DNA of 26,611 bases from Planctomycetota bacterium (GCA_038213315.1 JBBQTJ010000008.1:1-26611), one strand, 5' to 3'. Positions 2,493 through 13,492 are shown, numbered from the stretch's first letter. Numbers and translations: made by a program. Notes: generated from the letters alone by a model not told the origin.

Positions 2493-5396
2493 ATGCCCCT
2501 TGCTCATCTTGCCGCTGGTCACGCCTTGGTCCGTCTTGCCGCTGCCGTGCCCGAACGGGTCGCTGGTTGGGACGCCATCCTGGTCACGGCGGCCAGCCCC
2601 CAGCAGGCGGCGCTCTATCGGCTGCAACTGACCCGCGCCCGGGCCCGCGGCTTGCTGGCGGCCACCTGCCTGGACCTGGTGGTGCCGGATCCGGCGGGCA
2701 AACGCATCGGTAGTGGCGGCGCAACCCTGGGCGCCTTGCGCGCCTTGCAGGCCGCGGTGCCCGGTGACTGGACGGCCAAACGGGTGCTGCTGATCCACGC
2801 TGGTGGCGACAGCCGTCGGCTCCCCTGGGCCAATGTCATCGGCAAGCTCTTCGTGCCCTTTCCGTTGCTGGCCCCGGCAGAAGTGCCCCTGACCCTCTTC
2901 GATCACCTGCTCGCCATCGCTGCCCACGCGGCCCAGGCCATGCCAGCGGGGGGGCTGCTGACCCTGACCGGCGATGTACTGCCGCTGTTCGCCGCGGAGC
3001 GGATGCGTCCGCCGGTCGATGGGGGATTGGTTGTCACCGCGCCCACGCCGTTGGATCTGGCCAGCCGTCATGGGGTGATCCATGCCGGCGCGGATGGCTT
3101 GGTGCAGGATCTGCTGCAGAAGGCGACCCCGGCTCAATTGCAGACCTCGGGCGCGCTGGTGGGCGGTGCGGCGTTGTTGGACACCGGGGTTTATGCGTTC
3201 TTCGGTGGCGCTTTCAGCGGTCTGCTCCGCCTTGCGGCGCGCGCTGCCGATCCGGTGGCCGAGCTGGTCGCCAGCGGCAAAGAGATGAGCCTCTATGAAG
3301 AGATGGCCGCTGGCCTGGTGCCGCGCCGTCATGCCTGGCTTGAGGGACGCCCCCTCGGCGCAGAACTGCGCGGCGCCTTGCAGGGCTTTCCCCTGGTCGA
3401 GCACCGCGATGCCGAGTTTCGTTTCGTGCACCTGGGCACCACTGCCGAAGCGCTGGAGCATTTGCAGGATGACTGGGAGGGCCGCATGTCCCGCCGGGTG
3501 CTCTGCGAATGCGGACCCGCAGTTGACGATGGTGCGGTGATCGCCGCCAGTCTGCTCGACAGCGGCGCGGCGGTGGGCGCGGGTAGCCTGGTCTATGGTT
3601 CACATCTGGGTGGCCGCGTGGCGGTGGGCGCCCGCGCCGTGGTGCTGGGCGTGGACGTGCCGGATGCGCCCCTGCGCGTGCCGGACCACGCCTGCCTGTG
3701 GCAGGTGCCCCTGGCTGGTGGCGATCAGGTGGTGTCGGTGTGCTGCGGCGTCGACGATAATCCCAAGGACCTCTTCCCGGAATCCAGCTTCCTGGGCGAA
3801 CCGATGCCGGCGTGGCTTGATCGGCATGGCATCACCGCGGACGAGATCTGGCCGGCCGGCACCGCCAAGACCCTGTGGGATGCCCAGCTTTTCCCGGTCA
3901 TGCCGCGTCCGGCGGATGCGGGGTTGATGTCCTGGCTGTTGGCCGCCGCCCCCGCTGCCGGCCCGCTTGCCTGGCGGGCCTGCGAACGCCTCAGTCTGGC
4001 CCAGATCCACCGTCGCCTCGATCCCGATGCCGTGGTCGCCCGTCACGAAGAGCTGACCGGGCGCCTGGCCGTGCGTGGTGCGCTGAACGTGCTGGAGCAC
4101 GCCCTGGATCGGGACGTGTCGGCCATGGCGGCGCAGCTGACCCTGCCGCACCTGCGTCACGCCCTGGGGGCCTTGGCCGACGCGGGCGGCAGCGGTGAGG
4201 GCGTACCCGCCAGCCGCCGCCTGCAGGTGCGCGCCGATCTGCTGGCGGCCGGTGGGCAGCAGGCCCGTGCCGAGGCCACCAGTGACGAAGCCATGCGGGC
4301 CGTGCAGGCCGCGGTCACCGCCGCCATTGCTGATCGGCCGGTCGCACCGGTCAGCGGGGTGGACCCTGGCAGCCGGGCGACGCGCGAGCTGCCGGTGCGT
4401 TTCGACCTGGCCGGTGGCTGGACCGACACGCCACCGTATTGCCTGGAGCGGCCAGCGCGGGTGGTGAACCTAGCCATGTCCCTGGGCGGCCAATTGCCGG
4501 TGGGTGCCGAGGTGCAGGCCCTGGCCGAACCGCGCTTCGAACTGCTCATCGAAGGCGGCCCCAGTCGTACCATCAGCGATGCGCAGGAACTCGCCAACAT
4601 CACCCTGGCCGATACCCATGTGCTGCTGGTCACCGCCCTGGCGGTGTGCGGCTACGGCGACGGCCAGGGCATCACCCAGGGCTGTCGCGTACGCACCTGG
4701 TCGCACGTGCCGCGGGGCAGCGGTCTGGGTGGCAGTTCGATCCTGGCCGCGGCCTTGGTGGCCGCCTTGCAGCGTCTGGCCGGCCGCCCCGACGATCCAC
4801 GCACGGTCAGCGATCTGGTGTTGGTGCTCGAACAGCGCATGACCACCGGTGGCGGCTGGCAGGATCAGGTCGGCGCGTTGTGGCCCGGCATCAAGGCGAT
4901 CAGCAGTGTCCCGTCCCGCCCGCTGACGGTGCGCGTCGAGCCCATCACTGTGCCGGCTGCGGCGCGCCTTGCCCTAGAGCAGCGCCTGGTGCTGGTGTTC
5001 ACCGGCCAAGAGCGCCTGGCCAAGAACGTGCTTCAGATGGTGGTGCGCGGCTATCTGCGCCGCGACGGCCGGGTGCTGGCCGCCCTGCGCAACCTCGCTG
5101 GCCTGGCTGGGGATGCCCAGCAAGCCCTCAGCCTGGGCAATCTGGACTCCCTCGGCGGCATCCTCAAAGAGGTCTGGCACGCTCATCAGCAGCTTGATCC
5201 CCACTGCTCGAATCCGGCGGTGGATGCCATGTTTCGGGCCGTCGAGGACCTTGCCGTCGGTGGCAAGCTGGCCGGCGCGGGCGGCGGCGGCTTCCTGGGC
5301 GTGCTGGCCAAAGACGCCGAGTCGGCCCAGCGCATCGCCGGCCTGTTGCCGCAACGCTTCCCTGGCGTGCGGGTTTATCCGTGGGCGGTGGCTTAG
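2493..5396 (+). CDS. bifunctional L-fucokinase / fucose-1-phosphate guanylyltransferase (Fkp)-like protein, 967 aa
   Basis: The N-terminal half carries KRIGSGGATLGAL, matching the fucokinase-family nucleotidyltransferase motif (compare human FUK VGSGGATLNAL), and WDAILVTA. The C-terminal half carries the GHMP-kinase signature PRGSGLGGSSILAAALVAAL and a C-terminal GHMP fold. Architecture is collinear with Bacteroides Fkp. Confidence 0.8.
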   Translation: MPLAHLAAGHALVRLAAAVPERVAGWDAILVTAASPQQAALYRLQLTRARARGLLAATCLDLVVPDPAGKRIGSGGATLGALRALQAAVPGDWTAKRVLLIHAGGDSRRLPWANVIGKLFVPFPLLAPAEVPLTLFDHLLAIAAHAAQAMPAGGLLTLTGDVLPLFAAERMRPPVDGGLVVTAPTPLDLASRHGVIHAGADGLVQDLLQKATPAQLQTSGALVGGAALLDTGVYAFFGGAFSGLLRLAARAADPVAELVASGKEMSLYEEMAAGLVPRRHAWLEGRPLGAELRGALQGFPLVEHRDAEFRFVHLGTTAEALEHLQDDWEGRMSRRVLCECGPAVDDGAVIAASLLDSGAAVGAGSLVYGSHLGGRVAVGARAVVLGVDVPDAPLRVPDHACLWQVPLAGGDQVVSVCCGVDDNPKDLFPESSFLGEPMPAWLDRHGITADEIWPAGTAKTLWDAQLFPVMPRPADAGLMSWLLAAAPAAGPLAWRACERLSLAQIHRRLDPDAVVARHEELTGRLAVRGALNVLEHALDRDVSAMAAQLTLPHLRHALGALADAGGSGEGVPASRRLQVRADLLAAGGQQARAEATSDEAMRAVQAAVTAAIADRPVAPVSGVDPGSRATRELPVRFDLAGGWTDTPPYCLERPARVVNLAMSLGGQLPVGAEVQALAEPRFELLIEGGPSRTISDAQELANITLADTHVLLVTALAVCGYGDGQGITQGCRVRTWSHVPRGSGLGGSSILAAALVAALQRLAGRPDDPRTVSDLVLVLEQRMTTGGGWQDQVGALWPGIKAISSVPSRPLTVRVEPITVPAAARLALEQRLVLVFTGQERLAKNVLQMVVRGYLRRDGRVLAALRNLAGLAGDAQQALSLGNLDSLGGILKEVWHAHQQLDPHCSNPAVDAMFRAVEDLAVGGKLAGAGGGGFLGVLAKDAESAQRIAGLLPQRFPGVRVYPWAVA

Positions 5397-5511: not shown

Positions 5512-8052
5512 GTGCTTGCCAGGATCACTGAAAAACGCCTGTTGATCGTTCGGTGGCTGCTGCTACTGGCCTGGTGCGGACTCATCGCCGGGCTGCTGAC
5601 CATGCCGACGTTGCCGTTCCTCACGCTCTGGTGGTCAGCGGCCATTCCCGCCTTCCTGCTGTGCGTGCTTGTGCTTGGGCACGACACTTGGCGGCGGATC
5701 TGCCCACTGTCGGCCCTGAACCAGGTGCCGCGCCTGCTCGGCATCGGCCGGACGACGAAGGTGGCCGCCGGCTCGTGGCTGTCGCGGCATGCGCTGATGG
5801 TGCAGTTCACCGTGCTGACTGCCTGCGTGGTCCTGCGCCTGACCGTCCTCAACCAGTCGAGCGAGGCCCTGGGCATCTTCCTCATCGCCCTCCTGGGCAC
5901 GGCCCTGCTGGTCGGCTTCCTGGCGGGCGGCAAGTCCTGGTGCCACTTTGCCTGCCCGCTGGCGCCGGTGCAGATGGTTTACAGCGGTCCGCGCGGACTG
6001 CTGGCCACGCCGGCGGCCCTGGGCGGCAGCGGGCCCGGCCTGAGCCAAAGCATGTGCCGCAACGTCCGCGACGAACCGACCTGCGTGGCCTGCCACGCGC
6101 CCTGCCCGGACATCGACCTCGAAAAAAGTTATTGGGAGCAGCTCGAAGGGTTTGAGCGCCGCGCGGTGGTCTATGGCTATTTGGGATTGGCGGCCGGTTA
6201 CGTGATCCATGTGCGCGGCGCGCTGCCGATTTTCTGGGCGGGGCCGGTGGTGGTGGCGGCGATCCTGCTTGCCATCGGTGCGGGTGCGCTGCTGGAGCGA
6301 GCTTTGCGCGCCGGCGAGGCTACCCGCCACCGCCTGATGACCCTGGCGACGGTGCTGGCCTTCGGTCTGCTTATCGCTGGCGCGCTGCTGCCCTCCCTGC
6401 CCCAGGGCCTGCGCCTGCCGGTCGCGGCACTGACGTCGGCCGCCGCCGCGACCTGGAGCTGGAACGTGTGGCGCCGCACGCGCCGGCTGTGGCAGCGCGA
6501 GGCCATGGCCTCGGTGTTCCGCCGCCGCCTGGCCGAGCTGCCGCTGGACCTGTCGCCGCACCTCGATGGCCGGACCTTGGACCAGCTCTCCACCGACGAG
6601 GTCGGGGTGTTGGCCGCGGTGCTGCCCGGACTCAACCAAAGCCTGCGCCAGCGCCTCTACCAGGGCGTGCTCACCGACGCCGCCGCGGCTGGCCAGCTCG
6701 GCTCGGCGGACGGCGACGCCATGCTCGGGCGGTTGCGTAGCCAGCTGCACATCCCCGACGACCAGCACGAACTGCTGGTGGCAGCCCTACCCACCGCCGG
6801 CTCGATCAAGCGCCTGGATAGCTACCGGCAGGCGGTGGAGCGGCTGGTCCTGGACGGCCTGTCCGAAGGTGAAGCCCTGGATGAGGCGATCGAGCGCCGT
6901 CGCGAATCGCTGAGCCAGCTGCGGGCCGCCTATAGCGTCACCGACGAGGAGCAGGAGCAGGTGGTCTTTGCCTTGGTCAACGGCGATGGCCTGATCGGCC
7001 GTGCCGGCTCCTCGCTGCTGGCCGAGCTTGAACGGCTGTGCGCCGCGCGGGCGGCCCTGGGCACGGCGGGCGCCGAGGGCTTCCTGCGCGCCCACCTGGA
7101 CGAGCGCGGCCGGGCCCTGGCCACGCAGTTCAACGGGGTGCAGGCCGCGCTCGGAACCAGCGCCGCTGGCCAGGCCCTGGCCGTGGCCCGCACCGCCGCG
7201 GCCATCGACCCCGACCTGGTACCCGGCGCGTCGGGCCGCATCGCGCCCCTGGCCGTGGCCGAGGTCCGCACGCTCCTGGGCGGGGACGCGGATCCGATCG
7301 TCGCGGCTGTCGCCCGCCAACCGACCAGCCCGGCGGTGGTCCTGCGCCTGGCCCTGGCGGGCGAGGACGTGCCGTGCCGGGAAGCCACCGCACGCATCGG
7401 CCGCGATCCCGCCTCGACCGTGGTGGTCACCCATCCCCAGGCCAGCCGCAACCACTGCCTGGTCGGGCTGGATGCGGATGGCGCCTGGCTCCACGATCTG
7501 GGCAGCGGCAACGGCACCCTGGTCGACGGCCGTCTGGTGCGCGGGGCGCGGGTGCGGTTGCGCGCCAATGCGGTGATCCGCATCGGCAGCGACGGCCCCA
7601 GCTTGGCCGTAGGTGCGCGCGACTACGTGCCCAGCGACCGGGTAGACCTTTTTCTCGCCCTGCGCGCTTCGGCCTTGGGCACGCTGCCACAGGCCGTGCT
7701 GTGGGACCTGGCCGAGGTCTCCGCCCTGCGCTTGGAGTCGGCCGGCACCCGGCTGATAGAGGAGGGCGCGCCGGTCTGGTCGCTGCTGGTGCTGGTCGGC
7801 GGCACGGCAGTGGCGACCAGTGGCGGCCGGACGGTGGGCGAGATCGCCGTTGGCGAGACCATCGGGGAACTGGCCCTGATCAGCGAGCAATCGGCCGCGG
7901 TCACGGTGACCGCGGTCACCGCCTGCACGACGCTGGCCATCCCCGGGATCAGGGTCGCCAGCCTGCTGGCCCGCCATCCCGGCGTGGCCACCGCTCTGCT
8001 CATGCTTACTGGTCGACGTCTTGCCAGCGCTGCAATTGCGGCTAACGACTAA
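5512..8052 (+). CDS. multidomain membrane protein: NapH/MauN-like polyferredoxin (COG0348-type) N-terminal domain + helical linker + FHA domain + C-terminal cyclic-nucleotide-binding (CAP-family) domain
   Basis: 846-aa ORF with a GTG start at 5512 (start uncertain; an internal Met lies at 5602). Multiple TM helices carry the Cys motifs RICPLSAL, GKSWCHFACPLAP and MCRNVRDEPTCVACHAPCPD (a CxxCxxxCP 4Fe-4S-type motif). The FHA core is RIGRDPASTVVV...NHCLVGLDADGAWLHDLGSGNGTLVDGRLV (about 7370-7660). The cNMP-binding core is GETIGELALISEQ near the C-terminus (about 7660-8040). Confidence 0.75.
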   Translation: MLARITEKRLLIVRWLLLLAWCGLIAGLLTMPTLPFLTLWWSAAIPAFLLCVLVLGHDTWRRICPLSALNQVPRLLGIGRTTKVAAGSWLSRHALMVQFTVLTACVVLRLTVLNQSSEALGIFLIALLGTALLVGFLAGGKSWCHFACPLAPVQMVYSGPRGLLATPAALGGSGPGLSQSMCRNVRDEPTCVACHAPCPDIDLEKSYWEQLEGFERRAVVYGYLGLAAGYVIHVRGALPIFWAGPVVVAAILLAIGAGALLERALRAGEATRHRLMTLATVLAFGLLIAGALLPSLPQGLRLPVAALTSAAAATWSWNVWRRTRRLWQREAMASVFRRRLAELPLDLSPHLDGRTLDQLSTDEVGVLAAVLPGLNQSLRQRLYQGVLTDAAAAGQLGSADGDAMLGRLRSQLHIPDDQHELLVAALPTAGSIKRLDSYRQAVERLVLDGLSEGEALDEAIERRRESLSQLRAAYSVTDEEQEQVVFALVNGDGLIGRAGSSLLAELERLCAARAALGTAGAEGFLRAHLDERGRALATQFNGVQAALGTSAAGQALAVARTAAAIDPDLVPGASGRIAPLAVAEVRTLLGGDADPIVAAVARQPTSPAVVLRLALAGEDVPCREATARIGRDPASTVVVTHPQASRNHCLVGLDADGAWLHDLGSGNGTLVDGRLVRGARVRLRANAVIRIGSDGPSLAVGARDYVPSDRVDLFLALRASALGTLPQAVLWDLAEVSALRLESAGTRLIEEGAPVWSLLVLVGGTAVATSGGRTVGEIAVGETIGELALISEQSAAVTVTAVTACTTLAIPGIRVASLLARHPGVATALLMLTGRRLASAAIAAND

Positions 8053-8069
8053 CAGGAAACCATGGTCCC

Positions 8070-9692
8070 ATGCTGACTCTGCGCATCTCACATCCCCTGC
8101 ATGGCGATCGGGTCGCGACGCTGACCCAGGGGGACTTCACTGGCGACGGGGTGGCCGTTGGCCGCGCCCCCCGTAACCGCATCGTCCTCGACGAGCAGGT
8201 GGTCAGCCGGCTGCACGCCCGCCTGACCCTGACTGCGGGCGGGGTCTTCATCGCCGACTGCGCCTCGACTGCGGGCATCCTGTTGAACGGCGTGCGGCTG
8301 CCGCCCAGCACCCCGGCGCGGGTGGCGGATGGGGATCTCATCGCCATCGGCCCGTACACTATCGCGCTCGCGCCGGCGGTCTCGCTGGCCGCAGAACCCG
8401 AGGGCCTGGGCTTAACCGTCATGGCCGCTCCGCCGGTGGATTCCTACATGCCGTTGGCCGTCCTCGCCGATCAGGAGCCGGCCCAGTGGACGGGCGGTGA
8501 GCTGGCCGTGCGCGTGGTGCGCATCATCGACGAGACGCCGGACGTGAAGACCTTCGTCTTTGCGGCTGCCCATCCGACCCAGTTCACCTACCTGCCTGGC
8601 CAGTTCGCTACCATCGAGGTCCTGATCGACGGGGTGAAGACCAGCCGCAGCTACACCCTGTCGTCGACGCCCACCCGCCCATATACGCTCTCGATCACCG
8701 TTAAACGCGTGGCTGCCGCCAACGATCTGCCGGCGGGCAAGGTCAGCTCCTGGCTGCACGCACACTTGGCCGTGGGCGATGAACTGCGCATCAATGGTCC
8801 CTTCGGCGACTTTTCGTGTGCCCGCCATCCCAGCCCGCGGCTGCTGCTGATCAGCGCCGGCAGCGGCATTACGCCCATGTTGTCGATGGCGCGTTGGCTG
8901 GCCGACAGCGCCGCCGAGGCCGACGTCGCCTTCGTGCACAGCGCACGCAGCAGCGCCGACTTGATCTGCCGCCAGGACCTCGAGCTGCTCGTCGTCCATA
9001 ACCCGCGCCTGCGCGTGGTGCTGGCGACCACCCGGCCCGAGCCCGGCTCGCGCTGGACCGGCCTGAGCGGGCGCATTTCTCTCGACATGTTGCGCCTGAC
9101 CGTGCCGGACTTCGAGCGCCGCACGGTGTTCTGCTGCGGCCCAGAGGGCTTCATGGCCGGCACCAAGGAGATGCTCGCCCAGGCCGGCTTCCCCATGGCG
9201 AACTACCACGAGGAGAGCTTCGGCGCGCCCAGGCGCCCCACGCCCGCGGCGACACACAACCAGTCGGCCGTGTCCCCGCCGACGGAGTTTGGGCTGAAGG
9301 CTTTGCTGCGCGTCGACGCCTCGCCCCGCGCTGCCGCGCCCATGACCGCTGCCGCGCCCATGACCGCCGCCGCGCCCGGCCCCCACGGCAGCAGCGCGAC
9401 CCGCACCGCCATAAAAACCGAGACACTGGGCAGCCTGCACTTCACCGGCAGCCGCGTCTCGCTGGTGTGCCCGCCGGCCCAGACCGTGCTCGAAGCGGGT
9501 GAGAGCAAGGGCATCAAGCTGCCCTTCGGCTGCCGCATTGGGAAATGCGGCGCCTGCAAACTGGTTAAGCGCAGCGGCGAGGTGCTGGCCGACGGCTACG
9601 ACGATAGCATCCTGAAGGCAGGCGAGCGCAGCAAGGGCTACGTCTTGGCCTGCATCGCCCGACCCGCGGGCCGGGTCGAGATCGAAGCGTAG
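8070..9692 (+). CDS. FHA domain fused to a ferredoxin-NAD(P) reductase-type oxidoreductase (FAD/NAD binding) with a C-terminal plant-type 2Fe-2S ferredoxin domain
   Basis: 540 aa, 18 bp downstream of the previous gene, so a likely operon. FHA: GRAPRNRIVLDEQVVSRLHARL...DCASTAGILLNGVRL...GDLIAIG. FAD motif RSYTLSS (RxYS), GKVSSWL, NAD motif LLLISAGSGITPML, and CGPEGFM. 2Fe-2S: CRIGKCGACK...YVLAC. The linker carries a tandem AAPMTAAAPMTAAAP repeat. Confidence 0.8.
   Translation: MLTLRISHPLHGDRVATLTQGDFTGDGVAVGRAPRNRIVLDEQVVSRLHARLTLTAGGVFIADCASTAGILLNGVRLPPSTPARVADGDLIAIGPYTIALAPAVSLAAEPEGLGLTVMAAPPVDSYMPLAVLADQEPAQWTGGELAVRVVRIIDETPDVKTFVFAAAHPTQFTYLPGQFATIEVLIDGVKTSRSYTLSSTPTRPYTLSITVKRVAAANDLPAGKVSSWLHAHLAVGDELRINGPFGDFSCARHPSPRLLLISAGSGITPMLSMARWLADSAAEADVAFVHSARSSADLICRQDLELLVVHNPRLRVVLATTRPEPGSRWTGLSGRISLDMLRLTVPDFERRTVFCCGPEGFMAGTKEMLAQAGFPMANYHEESFGAPRRPTPAATHNQSAVSPPTEFGLKALLRVDASPRAAAPMTAAAPMTAAAPGPHGSSATRTAIKTETLGSLHFTGSRVSLVCPPAQTVLEAGESKGIKLPFGCRIGKCGACKLVKRSGEVLADGYDDSILKAGERSKGYVLACIARPAGRVEIEA
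9333..9377 (+). repeat. in-frame tandem repeat (18-bp unit gccgcgcccatgaccgcy x2.5) in the linker of the FHA-FNR protein
   Basis: Direct sequence inspection: gccgcgcccatgaccgct gccgcgcccatgaccgcc gccgcgccc. It encodes AAPMTAAAPMTAAAP. Confidence 0.7.
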
Positions 9693-9723: not shown

Positions 9724-10599
9724 TTAGCCGCCGCCGAGCATCTTCATCGCCTTCTGCAGACTGATGCGCATGCGCGAGAACGAGCCGGCCAGGCTGGCGA
9801 TCTCATCCTTGCCGGCGATCTTGGGATCGCCCGCCGAGAAGTCGCCCTTGCTCACCTGGTCGCACAGGCGGCTCAGGCGGGTGATCGGCCGCACCACCAT
9901 CACGCGCATGGCGAGGTTGAGGCTGATCAGGGCCAGGACGCCAGCGGCGGTAAGCGAGCCCATGAACACCAAGAAGGTGGTGCGCGCGCGCTCCAGGGAC
10001 ACCGAGGCCGGCACGGCGACGATCTGGGCGCCGACGATCTCGTTCATCTTCCAGCCGAAGCCGTTGTTGGGGCCATAGATCTTGATCACGCTCGCCGGCG
10101 CCTTGTCCGGCGTGCTGTGGCAGTCCAGGCAGCTCGCGTTGGTGATCTGGATCGGCCGGGCGATGTACATGACTTCGCCGGTCGGGGTGGTGCGCGTGCC
10201 GGAGACCTCCTTCGCGGTTTCGTTATTGCGGAAGTAGCCGATGATGTCGCTCTCCCAGTCTACCGCCCGGTCGGCGGGGTTGGTCGGATTGAGGGCCGCC
10301 TCGCGGTAGGTGTAGTCGGAGTGCTTCACGCGCAGCAGGTCGAAGGCGCGCATGGCGGCGAAGGCCGGCACCGTCTCGGGATGGAACACGTCGGCACCGA
10401 GCTGGGCGACCAGCGGCTTGACGTTGTTGATGGTATAGGTGCGCATCGACATCGCCGCTTCGAGCATCAGCGTGGCGCGCTCCCGGATCTCCGCCCGGGC
10501 GTTGCTGTAGATGATCTGGTACGAGATGGTGCCCATGACCAGCAGGGCCGCCACGAAAGTCGCGGTGAGGATGAGCGTGAACTTGGTGCGGAGATTCAT
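9724..10599 (-). CDS. membrane signalling protein: periplasmic c-type-heme sensor domain (CXXCH; DUF3365/Tll0287-like) + TM + HAMP domain, with no output domain
   Basis: 291 aa. N-terminal TM FTLILTATFVAALLVMGTI. The periplasmic part contains CLDCH, a c-type heme-binding motif. A second TM FLVFMGSLTAAGVLALISLNLA is followed by a HAMP-like segment (RPITRLSRLCDQVSKGDFSAGD...EIASLAGSFSRM). Its start ATG overlaps the kinase stop (ATGA). Confidence 0.7.
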   Translation of the reverse strand: MNLRTKFTLILTATFVAALLVMGTISYQIIYSNARAEIRERATLMLEAAMSMRTYTINNVKPLVAQLGADVFHPETVPAFAAMRAFDLLRVKHSDYTYREAALNPTNPADRAVDWESDIIGYFRNNETAKEVSGTRTTPTGEVMYIARPIQITNASCLDCHSTPDKAPASVIKIYGPNNGFGWKMNEIVGAQIVAVPASVSLERARTTFLVFMGSLTAAGVLALISLNLAMRVMVVRPITRLSRLCDQVSKGDFSAGDPKIAGKDEIASLAGSFSRMRISLQKAMKMLGGG

Positions 10600-12053
10600 A
10601 TGAGGCTCAGTTTCTGCATTTCCTTGCGGAACGCGGCGCGGTCATGGTCGTCGGGGATCTCGCTTTCGAGCTGGGCGATGAGATCCTTGATGCTGCTCGC
10701 CTTGTTCACCATCCGCTTGACCAGCATCTGGGCGATCGGGCCGATGTGCTTGGCCAGTTCGCGGGAGATGTTCTCGGTAATCTCGTCGTCGGCGATCTTC
10801 GTGGCGGCACGCGGCGCGGTGGCGCGCGGCGCAATGGCATCTGCCCCCGCAGAGGAGCCGCTCGCCTCGATGGCCTTGCGCGCGGCGGCGGTGTTGAGCA
10901 GCGAGGTGATGTTCTCCAGCGCCGGCGAGGCGCGCAGCTGGTCGCCAGCCTGGGAAGTAAGGTTGTCGAGCAACTGCTGGGCGTTGGTCGCCGACTTGAT
11001 CGACTTGAACAAGACCGGCGTGGCCCGCTCGCCGATCGACTCCTCAAGCTGCTTGCGGATCTCCTCGACCAGGTGAGAAGGGATGGAGCGCATGCGCGTC
11101 AGGTCGACTGACGGCGCCTGGATACCGGTGACCATTGTGCGGTCTCCGTCTATCCCGCCGGCGAAACCGGGGACACCTTCAAGCCGTTGCAGCACCGCAT
11201 CGGCGTGCTGGGGCCGCTGCACCGCCTGCGGCCGCATCAGCCAGGCCAGCACCTGCGCCAGCTGCGCGCCGGCACTGTCCCGGGCGGCGATGACCTTCAG
11301 CGACCCGTCGATGCCGTCGGTCTGGTTGGACTGGTCCGAGATGGTGCGCTGGATCGCCTCGGTCGGAACAGTGCCGGTCAGGCAGTACAGCATGCAGGCG
11401 CCGACTGCGTACAGGTCGGTGGCCGGGCCCTGGGCATCGGTGCCGGTATATTGTTCCATGGGCGCATAGCCTGCGGTCACCAGCACCGTGAAGTTGCGCT
11501 CCTGGTCGCCCAGGTTTTGCCGGGCCGAGCCGAAGTCGAGCAACAGGATGCTGCCGTCGGGCCGGCGCATGATGTTGGCCGGTTTAATGTCACGGTGGAG
11601 GTAGCTGTGGGCGTGAATGACCCGCAGGGCCTTCAGGATCTCGATCAGGATGGCCCGCGCCTCGCCCACGCTAAGGGTGCCGTACTGGCGCACGTGATCG
11701 CGTAGCGTCATGCCCTCGACGTAGTCCATCACCATATAGGCGGTGTTGTTGGCCTCGTGGAAGCCGTGGACGTGCACGATGCGCGGGTCGCGGAACTGGG
11801 CGAGCGTGCGGGCCTCGTCCAGGAAGCGGTTGAGGCGCTTCCGGTAGCCCTCGTCGTCCACTTTGCCGGCGATGGTGAGCCCGTCCAAGGCCCGCGTCAC
11901 CTGGCCGTGCAGGAAGTACTCTTTGATGGCCACCATGCGCTGGAGCTGCACGTCCCAGGCCTGGTAGGTAAGGCCGAAGCCGCCGCGGCCCAGCAGTTTG
12001 GCGATGCGGTAGTGACCCAGCTGGGTGCCGGGCTGCAGGGCGTCGTCAGGCAT
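10596..12053 (-). CDS. Hanks-type serine/threonine protein kinase with a ~210-aa C-terminal helical extension containing an internal repeat
   Basis: Glycine loop LGRGGFGLTY, VAIK (catalytic Lys), HRDIKPANIM, DFGSAR and APE-like motifs. C-terminal repeats LVEEIRKQLEESIGERATPVL... and ITENISRELAKHIGPIAQMLV.... No TM segment. Translationally coupled to the downstream HAMP gene. Confidence 0.9.
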   Translation of the reverse strand: MPDDALQPGTQLGHYRIAKLLGRGGFGLTYQAWDVQLQRMVAIKEYFLHGQVTRALDGLTIAGKVDDEGYRKRLNRFLDEARTLAQFRDPRIVHVHGFHEANNTAYMVMDYVEGMTLRDHVRQYGTLSVGEARAILIEILKALRVIHAHSYLHRDIKPANIMRRPDGSILLLDFGSARQNLGDQERNFTVLVTAGYAPMEQYTGTDAQGPATDLYAVGACMLYCLTGTVPTEAIQRTISDQSNQTDGIDGSLKVIAARDSAGAQLAQVLAWLMRPQAVQRPQHADAVLQRLEGVPGFAGGIDGDRTMVTGIQAPSVDLTRMRSIPSHLVEEIRKQLEESIGERATPVLFKSIKSATNAQQLLDNLTSQAGDQLRASPALENITSLLNTAAARKAIEASGSSAGADAIAPRATAPRAATKIADDEITENISRELAKHIGPIAQMLVKRMVNKASSIKDLIAQLESEIPDDHDRAAFRKEMQKLSLI

Positions 12054-12707
12054 GGTGCCTCCAGGTAGGACCGGCTTGGGTCCGGAGGCAGGGCGCGGTG
12101 AAGGGCATGGCGGTGCGCATGGTTGTTTTGAGTATCATCGGCACAAGTGGGCATTAGCCTGACTTGAATATCATTGCTTTGCAACTGTCGCGCCCCGCTC
12201 GTGATCAGTTCCGCCCATGGTTCTAGCAGCGTAGCGGTAGACCTCGAGGCGCAGCTCTGGCGAAAATCCCGCCCCCACGGAGCCCTGCGCCGGAAGTCGC
12301 AAGTCTCATCAATCATGACGACGGCTTGATTCGGCGGCCGAGTGCAAGCGCTCATCTCGTAAGCACCGCCATCCTATCCGCGTGCTGGGACCGGGGCACC
12401 ACTGCGCCCGGGCCGATGCTGGCAGCCTGAGAATGTGGCCAAACGGTTTTATAACTGCGCCCGACGCCAGGTCCCTACCGGTAAGCTCAGCCAAGTAGAC
12501 TTCGAACTCCAACTGATCAATGCCGCTTACTGAGCTTTCCCATGCGGGTTGAGTGCGTCCTCTTGGGATTGCGGGCCACTGGCCCGCTCGAACGCCTGAT
12601 GGAAGGCATGCGAGCCGATGGCCGGCGGTCTCAGGGTTGCGCCGCGCCTAGTCAATCTATGAGTGAAAGCACAGTAACCAGCCGTTCGCAGCATCGGAGG
12701 AGGTCAT

Positions 12708-12959
12708 GTGTCGCGCAATTGGCTGACCGTGGGCTTTTGTGCGCGCTATGGCTTGACCGTGGCCAGCGTCGATCTGTCCGACCGCATCGCCGAGGCTCGG
12801 GCCTTGATCCTGGCCACGCATCTGCCCCTGGTCGAGATCGGCCGAGGCGTTGGGCTGCCGGATCCGCAGCACTTCAACAAGCGCTTCAAGACCTGTGGAA
12901 GACATCCCCCATCACACCTGCGCCGCGCTCGCGGCGCAGCATTTGGCGTGCGGGCATGA
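12708..12959 (+). pseudogene. AraC/XylS-family transcriptional regulator remnant (C-terminal HTH domain only)
   Basis: Frame opens after a TAA at 12675-12677. Translation SRNWLTVGFCARYGLTVASVDLSDRIAEARALILATHLPLVEIGRGVGLPDPQHFNKRFKTCGRHPPSHLRRAR matches the end of HTH1 plus the whole of HTH2 of AraC-family proteins. No N-terminal domain is present upstream in any frame. A strong GGAGGAGG SD precedes the GTG at 12708, so a truncated 83-aa product may still be made. Its stop overlaps the next start (ATGA). Confidence 0.5.
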
Positions 12960-13492
12960 GCACGCCCAGGCCCTATCAGCCATTCTGGTGCGAAGAGAAT
13001 ATCTGGCACCTGGCTGCGTCAGATGAGGTGGGTCCAGGCGAGCGCGTCGTCCTACTGGTGACCGGGGCGAGCGGTCAGGTGGCCTGCTGGGGGCAGCGTG
13101 CCGCCGCAGCCGGCGTGGCGATGCTGTGGGACTACCATGTGGTCTTGGCGGTACGTGGTCCTGGCGACACGGTGCTCTGGGATCTGGATTCCCGTCACGG
13201 CTGCCCGCTGCCACTGCCTCTGTGGCTGCACGAAACCTTCCCCAACAACGACCGGGTCCGGACTCTGTTCCAACCACGCTTCCAGATTATTCCGGCGCAG
13301 AATTACCGGCGGGATTTTTCCAGTGATCGCCAGCACATGCGCACGGCCAATGGCGCGTGGCAGCAGGCCCCACCAGCATGGCCGCTGATCACCGGCGGAG
13401 CCGTCACCTTGGCCGACTATCGGCAGCAGGCCCAGCACCAGGGCGTCGGGCTGACCGAGGTGGCCCAGCGACTGGCCCCGCAGCCGCTCTGA
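12956..13492 (+). CDS. protein N-terminal glutamine amidohydrolase (NTAQ1 / WDYHV-motif, Nt_Gln_amidase family) homolog
   Basis: 178 aa from ATG 12956. Motifs: FWCEENIWHL (eukaryotic NTAQ1 CYCEENIWKL, catalytic Cys), WDYHVVLAV (the family WDYHV signature), FSSDRQHMRT (FASDRSHMKD), NGAWQQAPP (GNWREPPP). The track ORF 12542..13492 is the same frame with an arginine-rich N-terminal extension that is probably not translated. Confidence 0.7.
   Translation: MSTPRPYQPFWCEENIWHLAASDEVGPGERVVLLVTGASGQVACWGQRAAAAGVAMLWDYHVVLAVRGPGDTVLWDLDSRHGCPLPLPLWLHETFPNNDRVRTLFQPRFQIIPAQNYRRDFSSDRQHMRTANGAWQQAPPAWPLITGGAVTLADYRQQAQHQGVGLTEVAQRLAPQPL

Follow-up and report, generated by a model that had tools for sequence, protein, structure and literature searches.

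A membrane protein with cysteine-rich, FHA and cyclic-nucleotide-binding-fold domains and its adjacent reductase in a Planctomycetota bacterium: a candidate two-subunit NAD(P)H-dependent iron-sulfur oxidoreductase

The membrane proteins NapH, NosH, NosR and RdhC have a module in common that consists of four transmembrane (TM) helices, Cys-Pro motifs and a ferredoxin-like Cys motif (PMC5928378). The four helices form an N-terminal block, in which TM2 and TM4 are each followed closely by a Cys-Pro motif facing the cytoplasm, and the ferredoxin-like motif comes after the block; the role of the CX3CP motif is still open even in NapH, NosR and RdhC (PMC5928378). CcoG, a member of the same Fer4_5 superfamily like FixG, RdxA and E. 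coli YccM, is membrane-anchored, faces the cytoplasm with two [4Fe-4S] clusters and reduces Cu(II), with no physiological electron donor known (PMC7558416, PMC8267372). The [4Fe-4S] motifs of CcoG, two in number, are canonical; its Ig-like domain is located in the periplasm, its gene belongs to ccoGHIS clusters, and it is not known to have a dedicated donor (PMC7558416).

Reductases of the FNR family (GbcB, Hcr, PaaE, BenC, MmoC) are built from FAD_binding_6, NAD_binding_1 and Fer2 domains, in this order. In NqrF of the Na+-NQR, electrons are passed from NADH via FAD and a [2Fe-2S] cluster to a Cys-held Fe centre in the membrane subunits. The FHA-regulated Rv1747 ABC transporter, GarA/OdhI and Bdellovibrio DgcB have in common that none of them is known to control a membrane Fe-S electron-transfer protein or an FNR-type reductase. 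Bacterial electron-transfer proteins under direct signalling control have rarely been documented.

Here we describe a gene from a Planctomycetota bacterium, located within a window of 26,611 nucleotides (the whole stretch of DNA analysed), which encodes a protein of 846 amino acids with the following features:

5512..8052, + strand: gene for the membrane Fe-S / helical / FHA / cyclic-nucleotide-binding (CNB)-like protein; GTG start, 846 aa, unbroken reading frame
5512..6477, + strand: membrane domain, aa 1-322; eight predicted TM helices, N-terminus inside
5680..5706, + strand: degenerate first Fer4_5 motif, H57-D-T-W-R-R-I-C64-P65, with WX3CP replacing CX3CP
5926..6150, + strand: cytoplasmic Cys-rich loop, aa 139-213, with invariant Cys; Fer4_5 match at aa 121-157
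6478..7311, + strand: family-specific cytoplasmic helical region, aa 323-600, of two similar helical units
7393..7587, + strand: FHA domain, aa 628-692; PF00498, 56.4 bits against a cutoff of 20.7, E 4e-15
7741..7977, + strand: CNB-fold domain, aa 744-822; PF00027, 37 bits, above cutoff
7864-7914, + strand: phosphate-binding cassette of the CNB fold; G785-E786 present, Ala795 replacing Arg
8050..8076, + strand: lost C-terminal tail; TAA, followed by QETMVPC-TGA as untranslated remnant

A sequence-only reading of the window had proposed that a Cys-rich membrane part, an extended helical stretch and domains of the FHA and CNB folds are united in a single protein. This was borne out, the reading frame being continuous and all domains being found. 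The opposite view, in which errors of sequencing or assembly fused two or more genes or the domains were matched by chance, might appeal to the many long spurious reading frames that high-GC DNA yields and to the GTG start, for which a ribosome-binding site is not obvious. However, colinear relatives of 53–72% identity span 97–100% of the protein with the identical domain set, a 99% identical copy (L009) exists on an independent metagenome contig, the domain E-values range from 1e-9 to 1e-15 and the N-terminus is conserved. An artefact is thus already refuted, and we assign it next to no probability. The same conservation supports the GTG start, which had been called uncertain: relatives as distant as 31% identity keep the motif (M/V)LARxxE(K/R), and several of them begin with M. 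The sole defect of the gene is at its 3' end, where a TAA at 8050, in frame, removes the final 8 codons of a tail conserved in close relatives (D-x-x-E-K/R-T-x-x-C-stop), whose stop codon overlaps there with the ATG of the adjacent reductase gene. Both 99% copies, P0001 with its likewise 846 aa and L009, have this early stop.

The predicted topology of the eight-helix membrane domain places all K/R-rich loops and all conserved Cys on the cytoplasmic side. Over 32 sequences, down to ~30% identity, seven Cys (C64, C144, C148, C182, C191, C194, C198) and H57 are invariant. C64 and H57 are part of the degenerate first motif, in which W60, R61, R62 and P65 are likewise invariant in the alignments. 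The remaining six Cys reside in the Cys-rich loop, within W-C144-HFA-C148-P, which is a canonical CX3CP, S-Q-S-M-C182-R and C191-VA-C194-HAP-C198-P-D-I-D-L-E. Next to these motifs are H57 and an acidic patch that is also invariant (C198-P-D200-I-D202-x-E204). The Cys of the loop are presumed, from their motifs, to be ligands for one or two [4Fe-4S] clusters; with only seven Cys, two full clusters would need a non-Cys ligand. AF2 confidence was low over aa 163-197, as is to be expected for a cofactor-dependent loop. Searches for solved structures resembling the membrane domain returned none, and the corresponding sequence search was also empty. The residues W60-R61-R62 were considered as a Tat signal exporting the Fe-S loop. 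This was rejected, as they align with the Fer4_5 CX3CP position and the loop, given the even number of TM helices, shares one side of the membrane with the FHA and CNB domains.

The Cys-bearing membrane domain is real, but the Fer4_5 (PF12801) match of the protein itself, at 16.4-18 bits, remains below the cutoff of 22; 34 of 47 relatives match Fer4_5 at E<=1e-3, several of them above the cutoff (22.7-28.2 bits). Weak but consistent similarity of the membrane N-domains to CcoG, NapH and NosR models was seen. The designation as NapH/MauN-like, however, holds for the shared CX3CP motif only. Against the NapH/MauN model TIGR02163 the protein scored 11.2 bits (cutoff 213), the full-length protein gave nothing at E<=0.1 with the NapH/MauN NCBIfam models, the best E among 16 N-domains was 3e-4, and hhalign to E. 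coli NapH aligned 15 columns at 14% probability. NapH orthology is ruled out by these scores, and neither nap (napAGB) nor mau genes were found in the window or the sampled loci. Compared with the NapH-type module, the protein has WX3CP as first motif and, where the module would have two CX2CX2CX3CP, a single atypical CX8CX2CX3CP (C182-x8-C191-x2-C194-x3-C198-P). It is longer by four TM helices, by the helical region of 280 aa and by the FHA and CNB domains, and it is paired with an NAD(P)H reductase of the cytoplasm, not with a periplasmic NapG/NosZ-type protein. The NCBIfam model matched by most N-domains was that of CcoG (TIGR02745; 8 of 16, best E 7e-4), although every match was far below cutoff. 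Unlike CcoG, the 846-aa protein has a dedicated reductase partner and regulatory domains; a FixG_C/Ig-like domain was not found in it, nor were ccoHIS, copA or copZ in the window or the sampled loci.

The helical region accompanies the membrane domain in almost all of 84 loci. Its first unit reads …DEVxVLAxVLP…LRxxLxIxDxEH… and its second …SYRxxxExL…LRxxYxI(S/T/D)xxExE…. No relative was found among PDB sequences, and Pfam gave only a sub-threshold ENT match; a TerB-like appearance was an impression by eye, supported by no tool, and was discarded.

Both the FHA and the cNMP_binding profile matched above their Pfam cutoffs, and the FHA beta-sandwich and the CNB fold were confirmed in the protein. 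The residues contacting phosphothreonine in FHA domains are canonical (G630-R631, S645-R646-N-H648, N667-G-T) and kept in the relatives P0002-P0012. A conserved Thr that could serve as its target was not found in alignments of the family core. One candidate, the Thr in AYSVT478DEEQ, was dismissed, being S, T or D in relatives and resembling a helix N-cap.

Of the dual input by phosphothreonine and cAMP/cGMP envisaged earlier, the FHA half agrees with these canonical residues, and the cyclic-nucleotide half is doubtful. Inspection of the phosphate-binding cassette (GELALISEQSAAVTVTA in the 846-aa protein, aligned to GELALLKNKPRAATIKA in the PKA regulatory subunit) revealed that the phosphate-binding Arg is not conserved. 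Counted without regard to shared ancestry, this Arg is kept in 40 of 52 FHA-less relatives, as opposed to 7 of 29 bearing FHA (lost in 22). More distant relatives have canonical cassettes (PRSAT), so that cyclic-nucleotide control would be ancestral in the family, and the loss of Arg in FHA-bearing members suggests that phosphothreonine control replaced it instead of joining it. CNB-fold domains devoid of the Arg are known from the trypanosome PKA regulatory subunit, CooA, NtcA and FNR, and in the present protein the domain is probably a relic or binds another ligand.

The strongest clue to the function of the protein lies in the adjacent gene. The sequence-only reading had viewed the protein alone and overlooked this conserved partner, which comprises:

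8070..9692, + strand: partner reductase gene, 540 aa; all Pfam domains above cutoff
8154-8351, + strand: FHA domain
8511-8813, + strand: FAD_binding_6, 49.8 bits
8847-9167, + strand: NAD_binding_1, 59.7 bits
9444-9665, + strand: plant-type [2Fe-2S] ferredoxin domain (Fer2), 51.4 bits

A Thr/Pro/Ala-rich linker, at aa 390-455 of the partner, connects NAD_binding_1 to the [2Fe-2S] domain. The motifs SRSYT, AGSGITP and CRIGKCGAC…LAC are present, and RxY(S/T), GSGITP and Cx4Cx2C…C are conserved across 31 partners. Domain order and motifs are those of the FNR family, from which the partner differs by its N-terminal FHA domain; it also differs in its proposed acceptor, a Fer4_5-type membrane protein and neither a soluble oxygenase nor NqrDE. 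The closest NCBIfam relatives were GbcB (322.8 bits, cutoff 500) and Hcr-type proteins (193.5, cutoff 383), the partner being below all cutoffs of the GbcB, Hcr and PaaE equivalogs. In the partner FHA, GR and SRxH are present, while STAG replaces SxNG and the canonical Asn is missing.

The family to which the 846-aa protein belongs comprises 585 representative clusters, with relatives on at least 508 metagenomic stretches and CNB, FHA, PilZ and HEAT as accessory domains. The arrangement of membrane, helical, FHA and CNB domains had been taken for an unusual fusion; within the family it is the second commonest architecture (29 of 114 full-length representatives). A partner-type reductase adjoins family members in 33 of 84 loci and is the sole recurrent neighbour. 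Directly 3' of the membrane gene, an FHA-FNR-Fer2 gene was found in a 67% identical relative from a Planctomycetota MAG (L001) and also in a 36% identical one, with unrelated flanks. When sampled from the partner side, all three genes from cultured organisms (Denitromonas iodatirespirans, Anabaenopsis circularis NIES-21 and Nodularia sphaerocarpa) directly follow a family member, of 1001-1111 aa. The FAD_binding_6, NAD_binding_1 and Fer2 domains are even fused to the membrane domain in 8 of the 114 representatives; four of these fusions have PilZ where the partner reductase has FHA, and none has an FHA domain. Separate adjacent reductases occurred in 19 of 22 FHA-bearing versus 4 of 22 FHA-less loci (odds ratio 28.5, p 1.2e-5, from counts ignoring shared ancestry). 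Among ten scanned partners, eight possess the N-terminal FHA, even beside short membrane proteins without FHA and CNB. In ~60% of the family loci there is no adjacent reductase; hence the pairing is facultative, or the donor gene is located at another site. Minority neighbours, mostly in cyanobacterial-looking loci, were ABC exporters, WD40, DUF928/TPR and pyridine-nucleotide disulfide oxidoreductase genes, which provided no functional lead. Literature searches found no paper on the family or the architecture.

Converging on the partner gene from the opposite strand is a further operon:

9724..12053, - strand: convergent operon of a Ser/Thr protein kinase and a Tll0287-like + HAMP protein (Pfam)
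10596-12053, - strand: Ser/Thr protein kinase (Pfam)
9724-10599, - strand: Tll0287-like + HAMP protein (Pfam)

The kinase may be the one that supplies the phosphothreonine signal. A role as third, conserved component of the system was not supported: the operon is present in the 99% copy L009 and absent in the 67% relative L001, and nearby kinases are not enriched in FHA-bearing loci (6 of 22, against 4 of 22 FHA-less ones; p 0.72). The window yielded no relevant RNA element, tRNA, promoter or terminator.

Given the conserved pairing and natural reductase fusions, the intact motifs of the 31 partners and the invariant Cys of the membrane subunit, we propose, with moderate confidence, that the products of 5512-8052 and 8070-9692 are the two subunits of a membrane-bound iron-sulfur oxidoreductase that depends on NAD(P)H and is under FHA control. 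In the soluble subunit (FHA-FAD/NAD(P)H-[2Fe-2S]), electrons would flow from NAD(P)H via FAD to the [2Fe-2S] cluster. They would then enter one or two Fe-S clusters held by the seven invariant Cys, possibly with His57, at the cytoplasmic face of the eight-helix subunit, where Cys loops and C-terminal domains are predicted to be within reach of the reductase. The acceptor beyond these clusters would be located within or at the membrane and, if the NapH/NosR/RdhC module is a guide, is most likely a quinone. In this lineage, recognition of phosphothreonine by the FHA domains of both subunits could govern activity or assembly, presumably downstream of a Ser/Thr kinase. That FHA tracks the separate reductase and is missing from the fusions argues for a coupling or control element; the case is weakened by the lack of a conserved Thr target, of kinase enrichment and of the canonical Asn in the partner FHA. 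A role as membrane electron-transfer protein, as claimed earlier, is plausible.

Three other readings draw on the same evidence. A stand-alone NapH/MauN-type quinol dehydrogenase or redox-maturation subunit with dual phosphothreonine and cAMP/cGMP input would account for the two confirmed regulatory folds, for the CX3CP and ferredoxin-like Cys motifs and for the PRSAT cassettes that point to ancestral cyclic-nucleotide control. We regard it as quite improbable, since Ala795 occupies the place of the cassette Arg, model and hhalign scores are minimal, nap and mau genes are missing from the window and the conserved, sometimes fused reductase is at odds with a protein standing alone. The same electron chain, with the FNR-Fer2 protein as donor, might instead serve a metal as acceptor, making the protein a CcoG-like, cytoplasm-facing Cu(II)/Fe(III) reductase. 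The matches of half of the N-domains to the CcoG model, the Cu(II) reduction by CcoG, which has no known physiological donor (PMC7558416, PMC8267372), and the acidic patch with H57 beside the Cys motifs are compatible with this. Yet the matches are far below cutoff, the FixG_C/Ig-like domain was not found and the window and the sampled loci had no copper-related genes, which renders this reading rather unlikely.

The protein might also be a redox or gas sensor and not an enzyme, in which the Fe-S centre responds to the state of NAD(P)H, quinone or O2 while the helical/FHA/CNB-like scaffold recruits or releases phospho-proteins. All accessory domains are indeed signalling or interaction modules, the large conserved helical region is devoid of a catalytic signature and many members have no adjacent reductase. 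Against this, none of the architectures seen contains an output domain (kinase, cyclase, DNA-binding), CNB, PilZ and FHA are typically input domains on an effector, and a full NAD(P)H-FAD-[2Fe-2S] chain, which some members have as part of the same polypeptide, exceeds the needs of a sensor; we consider this unlikely. The two-subunit oxidoreductase remains our preferred reading. Extended to the family, it may possibly represent a new class of signal-gated membrane electron entry point. The enzyme would be an NAD(P)H:quinone or ferredoxin:plastoquinone-type oxidoreductase, of two subunits or fused, around a Fer4_5 membrane Fe-S protein with a fold that the PDB does not yet contain. Its throughput would be switched by cAMP/cGMP (CNB), c-di-GMP (PilZ) or Ser/Thr phosphorylation (FHA), depending on the lineage, and in the present lineage the FHA domains would render docking of the reductase on the membrane subunit phospho-dependent. 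This wider view is tentative and open to considerable doubt.

The genes 5512-8052 and 8070-9692 are one example of a widespread, uncharacterised two-gene module. If the proposal is true, an uncharacterised route from NAD(P)H to a membrane Fe-S protein is common to such different bacteria as Planctomycetota, filamentous cyanobacteria and a betaproteobacterium, and this redox step would be directly under second-messenger or Ser/Thr-kinase control. The family would also supply a specific donor/acceptor pair as a candidate for the CX3CP (Fer4_5) membrane modules, which are poorly understood, and would hint at the kind of donor that is missing for CcoG-type proteins. With one core provided with CNB, FHA or PilZ inputs, and with the reductase separate where FHA is present and fused where it is absent, it constitutes a natural experiment in which the regulatory logic can be tested. 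Since family genes occur in cultured, genetically tractable cyanobacteria, such experiments are feasible.

The ORF at 5512-8052 on the forward strand is unbroken and encodes 846 residues when counted from GTG. Pfam placed an FHA domain at residues 628-692 (E 4e-15, 56 bits against a cutoff of 20.7) and a cNMP_binding (CNB) domain at residues 744-822 (E 3.7e-9, 37 bits against a cutoff of 27.5). Nine relatives (53-99% identity) match it in length and domain content at 97-100% query coverage, which confirmed that both domains and the membrane domain reside in one protein and not in two genes. A chimera was ruled out by these colinear relatives and by a 99% identical copy on an independent metagenome contig (locus L009). 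The GTG start, called uncertain in the sequence-only reading, is supported by the N-terminus, (M/V)LARxxE(K/R), which can be aligned from residue 1 in relatives as low as 31% identity.

At the other end of the gene (8050-8076), the TAA stop is followed in frame by QETMVPC-TGA. The C-terminus of close relatives reads D-x-x-E-(K/R)-T-x-x-C-stop, the stop codon overlapping the ATG of the following gene (ATGxTGA); the window has kept this overlap. The last eight residues were therefore lost by a nonsense change in the window lineage, common to the 99% copies (protein P0001, locus L009). The conserved Thr and terminal Cys of the lost tail could represent a phospho-site or ligand.

Hydropathy and both AF2 models predicted eight TM helices, with every K/R-rich loop facing the side that carries the C-terminal FHA and CNB domains; on these models this side is the cytoplasm, and all conserved Cys lie there. 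The Cys occur in three motifs:

Motif 1: W-x3-C64-P
Motif 2: C144-x3-C148-P, the Fer4_5 (PF12801) signature
Motif 3: C182-x8-C191-x2-C194-x3-C198-P

These seven Cys are invariant in 32 sequences, the most divergent at about 30% identity, as are H57, the WRR preceding C64 and a D200-x-D202-x-E204 patch; the seven Cys, perhaps with His57, are candidate cluster ligands. Fer4_5 scored 16-18 bits with the window protein (cutoff 22) and matched 34 of 47 relatives, several exceeding the cutoff. The domain had been called NapH/MauN-like, an assignment that failed at family level: the NapH/MauN model scored 11.2 bits (cutoff 213), and hhalign aligned 15 columns with E. coli NapH at 14% probability. The motif layout also differs, since NapH-type proteins are four-helix modules with two CX3CP and two canonical ferredoxin motifs (PMC5928378), whereas the membrane protein has eight helices, W-x3-CP and one CX3CP. 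Sub-threshold similarity among 16 N-domains was weak but consistent (CcoG 8/16, NapH/MauN 6/16, NosR 2/16), suggesting a remote branch of the CcoG/NapH-MauN/NosR superfamily. Distant relatives (loci L006, L012-L014, L017, L024, L051, L052, L066), many from loci of cyanobacterial appearance, carry two predicted periplasmic insertions missing from the window clade (columns 40-80 and 300-345 of alignment A4): a TM1-TM2 loop bearing two conserved Cys (C…QG.C) and an aromatic-rich segment between TM5 and TM6 (GNWxYYxSGxW…PGFY).

A full HMMER scan with residues 1-330 returned 585 representative clusters at E<=1e-3, of which 118 remained at E<=1e-30, and relatives are encoded on at least 508 metagenomic stretches. 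They carry the name 'hypothetical protein' or generic domain names, and a literature search found no paper on the family. The helical region (residues 323-600), for which no relative was found in Pfam or PDB, almost always accompanies the membrane domain.

Architectures of 114 full-length family members (MEM, membrane domain; HEL, helical region; FNR, FNR-type reductase; Fer2, [2Fe-2S] domain)
MEM-HEL-CNB: 51
MEM-HEL-FHA-CNB (window): 29
MEM-HEL: 20
MEM-HEL-FHA: 5
MEM-HEL-FNR-Fer2: 4
MEM-(HEL)-PilZ-FNR-Fer2: 4
MEM-CNB: 1

The fusion, previously considered unusual, is therefore the norm in its family. Downstream lie:

8070-9692, forward strand: partner reductase, FHA + FAD_binding_6 + NAD_binding_1 + plant-type [2Fe-2S]
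9724-12053, reverse strand: Ser/Thr kinase (485 aa) and Tll0287-like/HAMP protein, convergent with the reductase pair

The partner starts 17 nt past the membrane-gene stop and retains all cofactor motifs. In two relatives, one of 67% identity from a Planctomycetota MAG and one of 36%, it likewise follows the membrane gene amid unrelated flanking genes, and all-against-all ORF clustering returned it as the sole widely recurrent neighbour (33/84 loci). The best 120 partner relatives all have the FHA-FNR-Fer2 architecture, and a family member of 1001-1111 aa lies directly upstream in 3/3 sampled genes from cultured organisms. Eight of the 114 representatives carry the reductase and the membrane domain in a single polypeptide, as Pfam scans confirmed for P0080, P0098, P0115, P0124 and P0168. 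Neighbourhood and fusion argue that the two proteins work together and suggest an electron chain from NAD(P)H via FAD and [2Fe-2S] to the membrane Fe-S centre. By analogy with NapH, NosR and RdhC (PMC5928378), quinone would be the default acceptor; CcoG, for which no physiological electron donor is known (PMC7558416), offers an analogy for a metal ion as possible acceptor, and the pair may instead serve purely as a sensor.

A dual input of phospho-Thr and cAMP/cGMP had been proposed. The first is supported by canonical phosphothreonine-binding residues in the membrane-protein FHA. The second is not: alignment of GELALISEQSAAVTVTA with PKA regulatory subunits placed Ala795 at the phosphate-binding Arg position, an Arg kept in 40/52 FHA-less versus 7/29 FHA-bearing members. 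At loci of at least 12 kb, a separate adjacent reductase accompanies 19/22 FHA-bearing versus 4/22 FHA-less members (odds ratio 28.5, p 1.2e-5, shared ancestry not factored in). Of ten partners scanned, eight carry FHA at the N-terminus, including some next to short membrane proteins without FHA and CNB; fused forms have none (0/8) and carry PilZ instead in 4/8. From these correlations, which ignore phylogeny, we infer that FHA domains would couple the two subunits phospho-dependently and that FHA/phospho control may have replaced ancestral cyclic-nucleotide control in the window lineage.

Modular swaps are exemplified by P0080, P0098 and P0115, fused proteins with PilZ at the FHA position, and by loci L032, L055, L066, L067, L083 and L084. 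Short membrane proteins (554-681 aa) that comprise just the membrane domain and the first helical unit have FHA-reductases as partners, and in a third partner type an unidentified ~200-aa N-terminal domain replaces FHA (L027, L034, L037, L041, L045-L048, L058).

The partner's NAD-binding and [2Fe-2S] domains are joined by a Pro/Ala/Thr-rich linker (9228-9449, residues 387-460) holding the short tandem repeat AAPMTAAAPMTAAAP, plausibly a disordered Ser/Thr-kinase substrate and FHA docking site. No conserved Thr target for FHA was found. The kinase overlaps the downstream Tll0287-like (PAS-like, haem-c-type fold family)/HAMP gene by 4 nt, and the two may form a redox-sensing pair. A link between this pair and the FHA system is suggestive, but the arrangement is not conserved: the 67% relative lacks both genes, and kinases are not enriched near FHA loci (6/22 versus 4/22 FHA-less, p 0.72).

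Directly upstream of the membrane gene, 2493-5396 (forward) encodes a 967-aa bifunctional fucokinase/fucose-1-phosphate guanylyltransferase-like protein (Pfam Fucose_pyrophosphorylase and GHMP kinase; NCBIfam 394 bits, under the 721 cutoff), not conserved beside family members. A 316-aa ORF at 12542-13492 (forward) matches Nt_Gln_amidase (PF09764, E 2.6e-33), a family described chiefly from the N-degron pathway of eukaryotes (NTAQ1), which would make it unexpected on a bacterial contig.

The same gene pair, with Ser/Thr kinases nearby, occurs in the cultured cyanobacteria Anabaenopsis circularis NIES-21 (L091, AP018174.1), with a CHASE2-Pkinase ~1.8 kb downstream, and Nodularia sphaerocarpa (L092), with a Pkinase-FGE-sulfatase directly upstream; complete or draft genomes are available and both are usable as models. 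The original observation stands, its interpretation only in part. The feature draws on known kinds, namely Fer4_5 membrane Fe-S proteins, FNR-type reductases and FHA regulation. Judged by sequence, the membrane protein belongs to a widespread, uncharacterised family of two-component, sometimes fused, membrane Fe-S reductases with apparently interchangeable signalling inputs.
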